Of a stretch of 64,000 nt of DNA, positions 6,111 through 9,926 are shown in pieces. The position numbers and the translations under genes are program-made. This stretch comes from an uncultured Bacteroidota bacterium (GTDB lineage Bacteria; Bacteroidota; Ignavibacteria; Palsa-1295): assembly GCA_963702215.1 (NCBI GenBank), contig OY969726.1, positions 1,443,050 through 1,507,049 of the forward strand. The letters are read 5' to 3'. The notes under the pieces were generated by a model. That model was not told the origin of the DNA and did not search any database. It was given only the letters and a program-made list of their open reading frames with translations. Position 1 is the stretch's first letter, and every line of letters starts with the position of its first letter.

Positions 6111-7286
6111 ATGAAAATTCCATTAAGCTATAGTTTCCGTTCCCTCTGGACGCGCAAGCTGACGACCATTCTCACGATCGCCGGTGTGGCGCTCGTCGCC
6201 TTCGTGTTTACCGCCGTGCTCATGCTTGCCAACGGCGTGAAGAACACGATGGTCGCTACCGGCTCGGCGGATAACGCGATCGTGCTCAGAAAATCCGCGG
6301 AAAGCGAAACGCTGAGCATCATTACGTTCGACGAAGCAGATGTGATCGGCACGCAGCCGGAGATCGCGCTGGCAAGTGATGGCAAGCCGCTGATGTCCAA
6401 AGAGGTGCTTACCCTTATCAATTTGCAGAAGCATGGCGCGAACCCGAACGACCTTTCGAACGTGACGGTGCGCGGCGTTACGCCGGATGGAATCTTACTC
6501 CGTCCGCAGGTGAAATTGACGCACGGAAGAATGTTCAACTTTGGCGCTTCGGAACTAATTGTAGGCAATCAAATCGCCGATCGTTTCGATGGCATGGCGA
6601 TTGGCAACTCGATAAAATTTGCGGGACGCGAGTGGAAGATCGTCGGCCACTTCAATGCGGGCCGCAGCGGATTCGCTTCGGACATTTGGGGCGATCAGAA
6701 CCAAATTCTTCAGGCCTTCAACCGGCAGGCGTATTCTTCGGTGGTAATGCGACTGAAAGATCCCAAAGATTTCGCCGCGCTCAAAGCTCGTTTCGATAGC
6801 GATCCGCGCCTGAACGAACTCAAGATCGAGCCGGAAAAGCAATTCTATGCCGAGCAATCGGAAACGCTCGCGAACTTTATCCGAATTTTGGGAATCGTCA
6901 TCACCGTGATTTTCAGCTTTGGAGCGATGATTGGGGCGATGATTACGATGTACGCATCGGTGGCCAATCGCACGGTGGAAATCGGCACGTTGCGCGCGCT
7001 TGGCTTCCAGCGCCGAAGCGTGCTCAGCGCATTCCTGATCGAATCACTCTTTATTGCATTGCTCGGCGCCGGAGTGGGGCTTGTCTGCGCAACGCTTCTT
7101 TCGTTCCTCACCATCTCCACCACCGATTTTAGTTCCTTCGCCGAAATTGCGTTCGGCTTCACGATGACAGGAGGCATCGTCCTTGCCACGCTGATCTTTG
7201 CGATCGTGATGGGCTTCGTCGGCGGATTCCTTCCCAGTTTTCGCGCCGCGCGGCTGGATATCGTGAATGCACTACGATCGGCGTAA
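6111..7286 (+). CDS. ABC transporter permease (MacB/FtsX family)
   Basis: RTVEIGTLRALGF; ends FLPSFRAARLDIVNALRSA. Confidence 0.93.
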   Translation: MKIPLSYSFRSLWTRKLTTILTIAGVALVAFVFTAVLMLANGVKNTMVATGSADNAIVLRKSAESETLSIITFDEADVIGTQPEIALASDGKPLMSKEVLTLINLQKHGANPNDLSNVTVRGVTPDGILLRPQVKLTHGRMFNFGASELIVGNQIADRFDGMAIGNSIKFAGREWKIVGHFNAGRSGFASDIWGDQNQILQAFNRQAYSSVVMRLKDPKDFAALKARFDSDPRLNELKIEPEKQFYAEQSETLANFIRILGIVITVIFSFGAMIGAMITMYASVANRTVEIGTLRALGFQRRSVLSAFLIESLFIALLGAGVGLVCATLLSFLTISTTDFSSFAEIAFGFTMTGGIVLATLIFAIVMGFVGGFLPSFRAARLDIVNALRSA

Positions 7287-7583
7287 TCATCGCGCCAGTT
7301 TTCTTCGAAGGTCCTGCCGTCCGCTCATGACGGCAAGTATTTCGATCCAGTCTTTTCGAATCTCATAAACGATTCGGTAGCCTTCCACAATGAGTTCTCG
7401 GATTGTCCCAACCCGGAGCTCGGGAACTTCGCGGCCGGAGCGTGGAAACTCGGTCAAGCGATCAACACTGTAATACAGGCGATTAACGATCACTTCCGCG
7501 AAATGCGGAGAATTGCGCTCAATAAACATTCCGATCTCCGAAATGTCTTCAAGTGCCTGCAGCGACCACTTTACTTGACCCAC
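7287..7583 (-). CDS. RelE/ParE family toxin
   Basis: WSLQALEDISEI...FPRSGREVPE...RELIVEGYRIVYEI. Confidence 0.9.
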   Translation of the reverse strand: MGQVKWSLQALEDISEIGMFIERNSPHFAEVIVNRLYYSVDRLTEFPRSGREVPELRVGTIRELIVEGYRIVYEIRKDWIEILAVMSGRQDLRRKLAR

Positions 7584-7774
7584 TTCCGTAATCGTTCCTT
7601 CGCTTCGGCATGGCTGAGTGTCCGACCAGCCCGGATGTCTTCACGGCCTCGCTCAATTTTTTGAAGCACATAGAGCTCATACATCATTTCTTCGTACGAG
7701 GCCGAATCCTTCAAGTGCGAAATGGCCTTCATCGCCGTTTGTTTCGGTTTGCGAGTGGTGCTTTTAACTGGCAT
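7571..7774 (-). CDS. Cognate antitoxin
   Basis: SYEEMMYELYVLQKIERGREDIRAGRTLSHAEAKERL; overlaps the toxin start. Confidence 0.85.
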   Translation of the reverse strand: MPVKSTTRKPKQTAMKAISHLKDSASYEEMMYELYVLQKIERGREDIRAGRTLSHAEAKERLRKWVK

Positions 7775-7839
7775 ATTTTTTAATAACGAGCGTATCCGTC
7801 GGCGCGTTTCCAGTTCCATACCTCCTTTTTCAGAGCTAT

Positions 7840-7914
7840 GGCTTCGTCGGCGGATTCCATCCCAGCTTCCGCGCCGCGCGGCTGGATATTGTGAATGCGC
7901 TACGGTCGGCTTAG
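7840..7914 (+). repeat. Diverged copy 2 of the permease 3' end (7212-7286)
   Basis: 67/75 nt identical; 7 of the 8 differences are synonymous. Confidence 0.95.
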
Positions 7915-9764
7915 GGATCTTTCACGCAGCGGCAGGAGTAACCCGCTCCTTGATAATACTGACCCGAGTCAAGGTTGGCGGAATTATAAGTCAGAGCGTA
8001 AGTGCCTCCCCAGAACGAGCCATCCGGGGCAGGATTCGCGGTACTCTGAAAGGTATCCCAAAAGTTGGAGGTGAGCCCAACATCGACAACAGGATGGGAG
8101 ACGCCGAGGCTTTGCCCCGCCGGTACCGCGAAAAATCCACTGCTGTTTGTAGCTCCGGTGTTTGGGCTCTGCCAAAGATTGGTTGTTTTCATCGCGCCGC
8201 CTGCAACCGCATTCCCGCCTAAGAATGCGGCGAGCTGCGAAAATTCTGCCGGGCTTGGAACGTGCCATCCTTTCGGGCAAATGCCCTGCACGCCGCTCGG
8301 GTTTGCTGTGCTCGGGGCCGCACCCTGCATCACCGCTGTCCAAGTGTAGATCCGGCCATAAATTGGGCCATTCGCAGGATCGTCATTGTACAGCATACTC
8401 CCCGGCGCGTTATAATTCAGGTTCTGCGCCATCCAGGTTTGCGTGCCGATGCAAACCGCGCGATACACCTGCCCATCTCGCGCATCGGTGAACGAATCGA
8501 TGCAGGTCCCGTAGCTATAGTTGTCGGAACCGAAATGACGAAAAAAGAGCGAGCGCTTCCAATCGGAACTGAATTCGCTCGTGTTGTCTGATTTCAAATT
8601 GGCTATCCCGGTGCTGTCCTGATCGATGACAAGGCGGGTCAGCAGGGAATCTTCCATGAGCCGAGCAAAATCGTCATCGACGCTATAGGAAATCTCTGAT
8701 CCTGGTGCTCCTATAACATAACAATAATAGCTGATGGGGTTCAGGTTCAAAAACGCGGTGCGGATCGGAGTTTGTAAACCCTCATTCACAAAGGCATTTC
8801 CACTGTAGCACATATTGCCAAAAATAGCTGTGCCAGAGAGGGGAGCGAGCGTGCTCAGGTACTTCAATGTCACCCATTGAGTACGAAGACTATCGGGAAT
8901 TGCCTTTTTCTGCCATTGGGGATCGCTCAAGTTCGCTTTCACGCTCGAGCCTAAGGAAATATTTCCCGTCGTTAGCTGCGTGTAATTATCGAGAGAAGTT
9001 TGAGATGACACTAATGCTTTCATAGCACTCTCGTTGGCTGGACGAACGGGGATGGAAAGAGTGGAACCAATCAGAAAGCCATCTCTTTGGCCGTGCGTAT
9101 CGAGGATCACCAGCCCATAACTGCCGAATGTCGAAACAGCCTCGTACGTACATTGTTTGTTGACGAGCGTGGTAAGCTTCAACCCTAAGCTGGAACTCGA
9201 GAGGAGCTTCGCGGCAGACTTCAGTTGCCCCGAAAGTTCAAGAGAGGTAGTATCGGAAGCGAAGACCAAAACATTTTTATTCGTAATGGCGTGCGTGGCT
9301 GGGACTCCTTGTGGGGACATGGGGTCCTCCTCGATGATTTTGTCTTCGCGAGGCGTCGCTTCGGCATCGAAGGTTCCGTTCCTCCGCTCATCTTGACCGC
9401 GAGGAATATATTTTCCGGCACCGCGGAAAACATCCTTCCCATTGGCATCGACTTGTTCGAAATAGAACACGGTCGTTAATCCGGACTTCAGCGCAATGTT
9501 AATATAGACGCTATCGTCGCACACCACCGAAGCGACATTCGGCAGGGTCTGAAGCCAATCGGCAGTCTCAATGATGGCCTGATACGGATTACCGTTCGTC
9601 TGTTGAGCATAAGCGATGAATACCTTACCGGTCGTGTCGAGAATAGTGTTGACATCCAACACTGATGTCGAAGTAGGCGTCCCTTCCATGGTTTGTGTCG
9701 GCGCTTTGCACCGCGAGAAAGCGAACGCTAACGCGAAAAGCGCAGCGAGTTTTAGGACCTTCAT
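7911..9764 (-). CDS. Lipoprotein with C-terminal FISUMP (Fibrobacter succinogenes major paralogous) domain
   Basis: Signal peptide ending FSRC; FTDARDGQVY...WMAQNLNY...GICPKGWHVPS...SCRCVKD. Confidence 0.85.
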   Translation of the reverse strand: MKVLKLAALFALAFAFSRCKAPTQTMEGTPTSTSVLDVNTILDTTGKVFIAYAQQTNGNPYQAIIETADWLQTLPNVASVVCDDSVYINIALKSGLTTVFYFEQVDANGKDVFRGAGKYIPRGQDERRNGTFDAEATPREDKIIEEDPMSPQGVPATHAITNKNVLVFASDTTSLELSGQLKSAAKLLSSSSLGLKLTTLVNKQCTYEAVSTFGSYGLVILDTHGQRDGFLIGSTLSIPVRPANESAMKALVSSQTSLDNYTQLTTGNISLGSSVKANLSDPQWQKKAIPDSLRTQWVTLKYLSTLAPLSGTAIFGNMCYSGNAFVNEGLQTPIRTAFLNLNPISYYCYVIGAPGSEISYSVDDDFARLMEDSLLTRLVIDQDSTGIANLKSDNTSEFSSDWKRSLFFRHFGSDNYSYGTCIDSFTDARDGQVYRAVCIGTQTWMAQNLNYNAPGSMLYNDDPANGPIYGRIYTWTAVMQGAAPSTANPSGVQGICPKGWHVPSPAEFSQLAAFLGGNAVAGGAMKTTNLWQSPNTGATNSSGFFAVPAGQSLGVSHPVVDVGLTSNFWDTFQSTANPAPDGSFWGGTYALTYNSANLDSGQYYQGAGYSCRCVKDP

Positions 9765-9858
9765 AAATTTTTCTCCCATTAAAAAACCGTCATGGAAAAA
9801 TCGCAACTCCAAAGATAACCCAAAGAATCCCGGGCCGGCTAGAAAATCTGCACCACCC

Positions 9859-9926
9859 TCGGCTGATTCGTTCCCGGCTCCCGCGCCGCCTGGCTGGATA
9901 TTGTGAATGCGCTGCGGTCCGCGTAA
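9859..9926 (+). repeat. More decayed copy 3 of the permease 3' end
   Basis: Still encodes RAAWLDIVNALRSA* with synonymous changes; the 5' part has a TGA and missense changes. Confidence 0.9.

Follow-up and report, generated by a model that had tools for sequence, protein, structure and literature searches.

Serial copies of a permease gene end delimit integrase-free cassettes in a Bacteroidota genome and belong to a genome- and genus-wide pattern

Repeated permease tails at the macB locus

The window analyzed here is the whole 64,000-nt stretch between positions 1,443,050 and 1,507,049 of a single-contig 3.58-Mb genome (53.7% G+C) of an uncultured Bacteroidota bacterium. Genes were taken from crude calls based on open reading frames (ORFs; n = 2804 genome-wide), and families were assigned by Pfam. 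The window contains an ATP-binding cassette (ABC) transporter operon that consists of an ATPase gene and two genes for MacB_PCD/FtsX permeases, the last of which (called macB below) is intact and ends the operon. The final 25 codons of macB recur twice downstream in the same orientation as orphan tails detached from the rest of the gene (Table 1). The C-terminus of the first permease is unlike that of the second.

Copy 2 differs from the working end, copy 1, at eight positions: one change is non-synonymous (CTT to CAT, L to H), six are synonymous and the eighth replaces the TAA stop by TAG. Copy 3 is decayed in its 5' part, where an in-frame TGA and substitutions are found, and retains LDIVNALRSA* despite five synonymous changes; over its whole length the codons changed relative to copy 1 comprise six synonymous and five non-synonymous ones. 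A 35-nt core (up to three mismatches allowed) was found twice in the window, and two matches occurred in none of 100 shuffles of the window. Phase-variable alternative C-termini were considered and ruled out, as the orphans code for identical residues.

Copies 1 and 2 lie 553 bp apart, and an antisense pair of genes takes up all but 20 nt of this space. A ParE toxin gene preceded by a small overlapping ORF has the look of a type II ParE/ParD-like toxin-antitoxin (TA) arrangement. Copies 2 and 3 enclose an insert of about 1.9 kb with an antisense FISUMP gene, whose product has a lipoprotein-like N-terminus; 88 nt separate its start codon from copy 3. At the left joint of each cargo, its stop codon abuts or overlaps the stop codon of the repeat to its left. 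The recurrence of the tail, the antisense cargo and the abutting or overlapping stops had all been described in an earlier prediction made from the sequence alone, and all are present; the start of copy 3 was moved from 9859 to about 9852. No integrase or transposase gene lies in or beside the two inserts, in which Pfam identified ParE and Fib_succ_major alone, and neither insert carries restriction (R) and modification (M) genes, their cargo being the ParE pair and the lipoprotein gene.

Table 1. Features of the macB locus (positions in the window)
Feature	Position	Strand	Basis and remarks
ABC transporter ATPase, first gene of the host operon	4202..4945	+	Pfam ABC_tran, E 6.9e-37
First MacB_PCD/FtsX permease of the operon	4947..6104	+	Pfam FtsX and MacB_PCD
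Second MacB_PCD/FtsX permease (macB), 391 aa, host gene	6111..7286	+	Pfam
Copy 1, working final 25 codons and TAA of macB	7212..7286	+	Sequence
ParE-family toxin gene	7287..7583	-	Pfam ParE_toxin, E 5.6e-17; stop directly abuts the permease stop
Putative antitoxin, 82 aa	7571..7819	-	ORF, no Pfam match; overlaps parE by 13 nt
Copy 2, orphan permease tail (GFVGGFHPSFRAARLDIVNALRSA, TAG stop)	7840..7914	+	67/75 nt identical to copy 1
Fib_succ_major (FISUMP) putative lipoprotein	7911..9764	-	Pfam, E 7.6e-23; stop overlaps the copy 2 stop
Copy 3, decayed orphan permease tail, TAA stop kept	9852..9926	+	76% identity to copy 1
Outer-membrane beta-barrel protein, between copy 3 and degT	10001..10720	+	Pfam OMP_b-brl_2, E 7.4e-07
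DegT/DnrJ aminotransferase (degT), conserved right flank	10717..11895	-	Pfam, E 1.5e-110

The gene for the outer-membrane protein beyond copy 3 has no homologue at the macB loci of ten relatives (G012 and G011 among them), and no copies of the degT tail surround it, so this gene stands without a flanking duplication. A scan of positions 7000–10200 for sigma-70 promoters and terminators gave counts at or below the shuffle expectation, Bacteroidota-type promoters lying outside the models used. Neither the window nor four array loci contained an Rfam family at the gathering score.

Empty and alternative macB sites in relatives

Orthologues of the permease with 81–93% amino acid identity were present in nine genomes of the same genus, and the downstream regions were compared in these and in one genome of another genus. 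G012 offers an empty site, with a single macB end whose stop codon overlaps that of the convergent degT; the direct repeats (75 nt here, i.e., longer than 30 bp) align to this single end. In G011, the first gene after macB encodes 375 aa; next comes an orphan tail that is decayed and has lost 6 nt, and degT lies 2 nt beyond it. The same arrangement was met in an independent assembly, the JGI metagenome contig L154. Other species carry other neighbors: a convergent FISUMP homologue 6 nt after the permease gene in G004, a 362-aa gene followed by FISUMP homologues in G005 and G008, and a 362-aa-type gene with no FISUMP homologue detected in G014 and G001. The loci of G009 and G006 were too short to judge. 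A homologue of the ParE pair (71–73% nucleotide identity) directly follows degT in G014 and G008 and occupies a third context in G004. A scan of metagenomes with macB retained 80 loci, four of them at 85% identity or above; these four were G004-like, G011-like or ended at a contig edge, and added no new variant. Hence, the number and content of cassettes vary between relatives, as had been anticipated, from the empty site of G012 to the different cargo of G011.

The alleles of the tails are informative as well. The orphan end of G011 (...TCGGCTTAG) resembles both the working end of G012 and copy 2, while the working end of G011 is of the ...GGG TGA type shared with six other species. This pattern indicates that the cargo brought G011 its working tail and displaced the resident one, which is what the original prediction had proposed for an incoming end. 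Copy 2 matches the working end of G012 in its 3' part (68/75), and copies 1 and 2 are about as divergent as tails from separate species within the genus (62–68 of 75 positions identical). The TAG-type allele that G012 and G011 have at their degT junctions is carried by copy 2 and not by the most distal copy 3, so the stack is not a simple push-down record. The proposal that age is greatest for the copy farthest from the gene is plausible, copy 3 being the most decayed, and unproven in view of the allele on copy 2.

Orphan gene ends across the genome

The genome was compared with itself and an ungapped BLOSUM protein scan was then run over 8 kb on each side of the 2804 genes. Orphan copies of the last 25 residues were found downstream of 23 genes and upstream of eight; the control pieces gave five downstream and four upstream (N-terminal) and two and two (mid-gene). 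Application of a paralogue filter left 17 downstream and three upstream cases for the gene ends, two of the latter three being spurious antisense ORFs inside repeats. At least 16 loci with 19 orphan copies could be aligned. The host genes include groEL and a YebC-like gene, and further hosts, which we take from their size and C-terminus to be thioredoxin-reductase-like, biotin-carboxylase-like and ROK kinase-like genes.

The repeats are 41–272 nt long. At 12 of the 16 loci, as read by eye, no more than about 10 nt separate the right edge from the stop codon; the left edge is variable. Four orphan tails of gene g330 in G012 begin 21, 22, 28 and 31 codons before the end; in the source genome the left edges at g330 lie at 24 and 31 codons, and those at g723 vary too. 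Such variation at one locus argues against one fixed crossover site.

Cassette units of 0.45–2.5 kb are taken up almost entirely by one or two genes. Pfam TA families were recognized in five of the 19 cassettes (ParE; BrnT with a CopG antitoxin; HepT; HicA with HicB; an HI1420-type antidote), and other cassettes carry FISUMP, a BNR-repeat protein, Bro-N, an HXXEE protein or proteins without a family. One 4.8-kb cassette holds an IS1595 transposase, and none of the 19 contains an integrase. Two hold nothing but an intergenic repeat of about 200 nt (genome positions 2839795–2840015 and 2884288–2884484). This repeat forms a family of about 18 copies with 72–89% identity and no Rfam match, one of which lies in the window (32378–32597; genome 1475427–1475646). 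It was ruled out as the mobile agent, long flanking repeats being present at just two of 17 copies.

Two further loci deserve description. At g372 (genome 2084288–2085186) a Bro-N gene lies between tails of a 372-aa gene that are identical at 68 of 68 nt; a Bro-N homologue (73–76% nucleotide identity) is found elsewhere in relatives, beside a protein with a type IX secretion system tail, and occurs as a single copy here, so that the gene seems to have been relocated. A second locus within the window concerns an ABC-2 permease gene (62920–63912, minus strand), the last 14 or so codons of which recur at 62626–62685 (75% nucleotide identity, ...KLDEIAKWVCYS) with a 73-aa ORF (62680–62901) in between. 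Beyond this tail come an 87-aa ORF and a 141-aa ORF (61965–62390), a pair that is VapBC-like in appearance.

Synonymous divergence between tail copies

In the 19 copy pairs from the 16 loci, 129 of the changed codons were synonymous and 104 non-synonymous. Simulations of neutral change (2000 runs with an equal number of random substitutions) gave a mean of 46 synonymous codons and a maximum of 68, an expectation that assumes uniform substitutions and rests on aligned lengths picked by eye and on the crude ORF calls. The synonymous bias noted for the macB copies extends to the genome-wide set. For copy 2 alone, seven of the eight changed codons were synonymous, against a simulated mean of 1.8, and seven was reached in about one of 2000 simulations. 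The best-kept pairs were more biased still, with synonymous changes in 5/5 codons at groEL, 7/8 at macB copy 2, 6/7 at yebC, 10/11 and 14/18 at g330 and 12/16 at g503 (54/65 overall).

If a duplicate made in place decays freely and the working copy changes silently, the synonymous share is expected to be near 40%, as an estimate. The excess over this value suggests that most of the divergence arose when both tails were working ends in separate lineages. Comparison of the codons thus supports the view that the copies diverged under purifying selection, as expected of functional alleles from other lineages.

groEL stacks in the genus

Clear orphan tails stand behind groEL in seven of 15 genomes of the genus, the source genome included. 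Three orphans each were counted in G004, G009 and G013 and one each in the source genome, G002 and G005; G012 has two partial copies, and G001 and G014 have decayed remnants. Among genomes of other genera, a clear groEL orphan was found in none of the eight that gave any match, the query being less sensitive there. The cargo of the stacks again consists mostly of small TA-like pairs. One HicA/HicB cassette, with the same junction to the groEL tail that follows it, is first in the stack of G014, second in that of G002 and fourth in that of G013, which indicates that cassettes move or persist as units while their order changes.

Search for recombinases, shared motifs and folds

The genome encodes three tyrosine recombinases (PF00589) and one serine recombinase, none of them within 600 kb of the window. 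None lies near any array, nor was intI found beside one, in agreement with the integrase-free character of the stack in the original prediction. Two of the four recombinases belong to a canonical 10.4-kb island (genome 2190552–2200985; L043 1053–11486). Its left end encodes a tyrosine integrase, its interior encodes a serine recombinase, and the right copy of its 47-nt direct repeat overlaps tRNA-Ser(GCT). This island shows how an integrase-borne element looks in this genome. No IS110-type or TnpB genes were detected in the genome. In G004, G009, G013, G002 and G011, one to four tyrosine-recombinase matches per genome were obtained, the nearest lying 85 kb from a macB locus, and no tyrosine recombinase was present on the contigs carrying the groEL arrays of these five relatives.

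No 6- to 8-mer was enriched in the 16 repeats relative to the 2804 gene ends; the best value (p = 2.6e-4 among 1388 7-mers) is multiple-testing noise. An attC-like fold was not apparent in ten repeats, with z scores from -2.93 to +1.50 against shuffles and one of the ten below -2. The original prediction had named a trans-acting site-specific recombinase as one possible agent; with no shared motif or fold, and with recombinases few and distant, this part of it found no support.

Proposed mechanism and rival explanations

The feature is real, neither a chance match nor an artefact of assembly, and is part of a pattern that spans the genome and the genus. Strain haplotypes of the gene end joined in series by the assembler would be an extremely unlikely explanation. 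The genome is a metagenome-derived single contig, and the material for checking it consisted of low-depth short Logan contigs from one soil study; however, the architecture recurs in independent assemblies (G011 and L154 at macB, seven species at groEL), the copies are separated by unique coding sequence, and a contig from a public run, identical to the window, spans the junction of copy 2 and FISUMP (7881–8100), although that run may be the source sample.

Repeated gene ends, synonymous divergence between them, empty and alternative sites in relatives, and arrays with no recombinase genes nearby and no shared motifs or folds are best read, with about even confidence on our part, as the outcome of integrase-independent insertion with long target duplication at a gene-end recombination hotspot. 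A fragment from a related lineage would carry the conserved permease tail together with the donor's downstream neighbor, the convergent FISUMP gene having arrived first and the convergent ParE pair later. It would pair with the recipient solely through the conserved tail and be joined by host homologous recombination, either by one homologous end and an illegitimate joint, or by a Campbell-type crossover of a circularized fragment or, once repeats exist, by crossing over within the gene body and within a repeat. The newly arrived tail would take over as the working end, and the resident tail would stay behind the cargo as an untranslated orphan. Selection would retain only events that leave the host gene whole; the repeats would end at the stop codon because homology ends there and because the gene has to remain intact. 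Crossovers at the repeats could then let cassettes be gained, lost or reshuffled, both inside a species and from one species to another, and TA pairs are probably over-represented because they resist loss. What we infer here is how the donor was built, that RecA is required, by which route the DNA entered and in which order the events took place. One-ended, homology-anchored insertion would explain the variable left edges, the synonymous divergence and the lack of machinery, as well as the tight stop-to-stop left joint, which looks native (compare the convergent FISUMP homologue 6 nt after macB in G004), and the arbitrary right joint of each cargo.

Several observations weigh against this reading. 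No donor, circle or recombination tract was observed. The low-depth contigs of the public data showed no joints, no circular junctions and no form with an empty site, a result that carries no information about circles, and the identity of macB to its nine same-genus relatives in sliding windows was too noisy at 18–25% divergence to show a breakpoint. The FISUMP homologues near macB in G004, G005 and G008 are just 35–41% identical at the amino acid level, so that a native neighbor in the donor is something we infer. The start codon of the antitoxin gene lies so close to copy 2 (20 nt) that there is no space for a promoter of its own. The arrangement of the ParE pair could stem partly from older linkage and local rearrangement and not from import, and the pair may lie close to degT here in part by ancestry. 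The identical tails at g372 fit duplication in place as well as import. Of the genes the original prediction had pointed to, the competence genes comEC and dprA are present, yet they also occur in 10–11 of 14 control genomes, and the recombinases are the four distant ones described above. The three macB orphans (two here, one in G011) start within about 6 nt of each other. The listed groEL orphans with a preserved 5' part, about ten in the source genome, G002, G004, G005, G009 and G013, all start from an identical base, GAGAAGAAGG. Independent illegitimate joints would scatter, and the constant edge calls either for one founding event, with later spread by way of the repeats, or for a site-specific cut. 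The simplifying assumptions of the neutral simulation belong on the same side.

Duplication in place with no foreign tail, in which a template switch of the microhomology-mediated break-induced replication type or staggered breaks would copy a remote segment and return upstream, and in which later allelic replacement of the working gene by ordinary homologous recombination would produce the synonymous differences, is an unlikely alternative on the whole, though it needs no machinery and accommodates both the varying repeat lengths and the g372 locus, where the tails are identical and the Bro-N gene sits at another locus in relatives and once here. It would require two steps for the synonymous bias at most loci, and it predicts neither the stop-to-stop left junctions, nor the allele pattern of G011 and G012, nor one cassette at different positions in three species. 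An undescribed dedicated cassette system of the Kapaibacteria, with the coding 3' ends of conserved host genes (groEL, macB, yebC and others) as attachment sites in the manner of the attI and attC of an integron, appears rather improbable. In such a system some unrecognized activity would cut at defined positions, for instance at the GAGAAGAAGG edge, and would capture, stack and shuffle TA and surface-protein cassettes between species; mainly the invariant edge of the groEL orphans keeps this idea alive.

A trans-acting site-specific recombinase, of the host or of a transient element, that inserts and excises minicircles made of cargo and one repeat seems a shade less probable again; it would be akin to cis-mobilizable elements (CIMEs), pseudo-SCC elements or integron cassettes. 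The constant left edge of the preserved groEL orphans in six species, the similar left edges of the three macB orphans and the cassette-like behavior of the HicA/HicB unit in G013, G014 and G002 would suit it, but at least 16 target sequences lack a common motif and an attC-like fold, the left edges differ at g330 and g723, and the few recombinases (three tyrosine, one serine) are not near the arrays. Moreover, G004 has three groEL orphans and one tyrosine-recombinase match (89% completeness), and a programmable recombinase of the IS110 type was not found, nor was TnpB. We consider it very improbable that the arrays are remnants of integrase-bearing islands at gene ends whose integrases have since been deleted, i.e., CIMEs sensu stricto. 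An att-like repeat of the target's 3' end and serial accretion match the description of such elements in a review (PMC5704250), and the tRNA-Ser island shows that a canonical island exists in this genome. Still, judged from ORF listings and recombinase coordinates, an integrase-bearing version was absent from the macB loci of ten relatives and four close metagenome loci and from nine groEL loci of relatives; units of 0.45–2.5 kb show no trace of other island genes, and more than 16 targets would require many lost integrases.

If insertion through conserved gene ends is the right reading, each event would leave a scar, the displaced gene tail, that records the site, the order and the distance of the donor lineage. 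The 16 or more loci and the groEL stacks would then constitute a natural data set for one-ended recombination between species, with which conserved gene ends could be tested as portable homology arms and which could also reveal the involvement of some unrecognized activity. In annotation, orphan tails can flag recent insertions and hotspots.

Other repeats in the window, the genome and relatives

Direct repeats of about 70 nt (window 52109–52179 and 52761–52835; 73–83% identical), which are not an obvious gene end, enclose two overlapping minus-strand ORFs (52188–52454 and 52451–52687) that look TA-like. At unrelated loci of three relatives, short direct repeats likewise flank one or two small genes: L058 4001–4037/4890–4926 in G008, where a pair of 107-aa and 143-aa genes lies between the repeats, L059 3703–3793/5727–5819 in G005 and L061 5761–5852/6433–6524 in G014. 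Such repeats in relatives suggest that the habit is not confined to the source genome.

G+C-rich intergenic repeats of 60–125 nt, similar to repetitive extragenic palindromic (REP) sequences, form clusters at genome positions 383471–385005, 1158978–1166231, 1107963–1108243 and 1565252–1565593. They are of a different class from the gene tails, and some of them separate small ORFs with antitoxin-like ends. In the window, a G+C-rich tandem array of a 15-nt unit in at least six copies (33304–33438) probably codes for a repetitive peptide. Two diverged pairs of direct repeats (145 nt, 74% identity; 205 nt, 71% identity), spaced 2.0–2.6 kb apart between 17218 and 20488, are like tandem paralogous genes and not like orphan gene tails.

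Comparison with known systems

The closest precedent is the insertion with long target duplication of restriction-modification genes, described by Furuta et al. 2010 (NAR, PMC2853133), from Kobayashi's group, as occurring without mobility genes; that paper gives repeats of 46–423 bp, often across a stop or start codon, and counts such cases in 9 of 760 locus pairs, the majority of them from species with natural competence. Its criteria were direct repeats longer than 30 bp, an insert below 20 kb, no integrase or transposase, and the presence of R and M genes. Set beside that description, the present loci share the long direct repeats of variable length (41–272 nt), the one copy that a relative has at its empty site, the lack of mobility genes, the repeat that often spans the stop codon and the target gene left intact. 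The resemblance lies in the mechanism and not in the cargo, which here comprises TA pairs, lipoproteins and others. Insertions of that kind appear there as rare single events; here, stacks of up to four orphans and at least 16 loci in 3.6 Mb are found, one hotspot is reused across the genus, and the tails are strongly synonymously diverged, like alleles from other lineages. Restriction-modification insertions of this type had reportedly been noticed before, by Nobusato et al. in 2000 (Gene 259:99; cited by Furuta et al.), likewise from Kobayashi's group.

CIMEs are, in the review mentioned above (PMC5704250), decayed integrative and conjugative or integrative and mobilizable elements moved by a cognate integrase at a defined core, and tandem accretion at the 3' end of a gene is reported there with reference to Pavlovic 2004 and Bellanger 2011. 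The likeness is that a newcomer integrates beside a resident and arrays arise. The arrays described here differ from CIMEs, as far as that account goes, in having many targets and units of one or two genes, and neither a cognate integrase nor a core motif shared across loci was found. The accretion model of the original prediction was largely supported; its description as undescribed was too strong, given the known restriction-modification insertions and the accretion of CIMEs.

Small TA islets between core genes, devoid of mobile genetic element genes and turning over rapidly, were reported by Belot et al. 2026 in MBE (PMC13617665), where transfer by recombination at the core genes that border them is proposed and the entry of islets without mobile-element genes is called poorly characterized. 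Unlike those islets, in the description of which the main text does not use the term direct repeat, each islet here is delimited by a duplicated core-gene tail, a physical trace of its entry. In the main texts covered, an incomplete sample of the literature, no account was found of TA cassettes bounded by duplicated gene tails; supplementary tables of Furuta et al. 2010 and Belot et al. 2026 may contain relevant cases.

Homology-facilitated illegitimate recombination, reportedly documented in naturally transformable bacteria by de Vries and Wackernagel and by Prudhomme et al., both in 2002, is similar in that foreign DNA enters through one homologous anchor with no dedicated recombinase. Its usual products are said to delete recipient DNA and not to duplicate the anchor. 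Integron arrays resemble the stacks in their serial small cassettes, often TA pairs, with a repeated site between them and an order that varies among relatives. Unlike integrons, the stacks have no intI, no attC-like fold and a mixed orientation of cassettes, and what is repeated is the coding end of the host gene itself, which differs from locus to locus. Altogether, the arrays differ from the known restriction-modification insertions in their cargo, serial stacking, density, genus-wide reuse of one site and evidence for tails that are alleles of other lineages.

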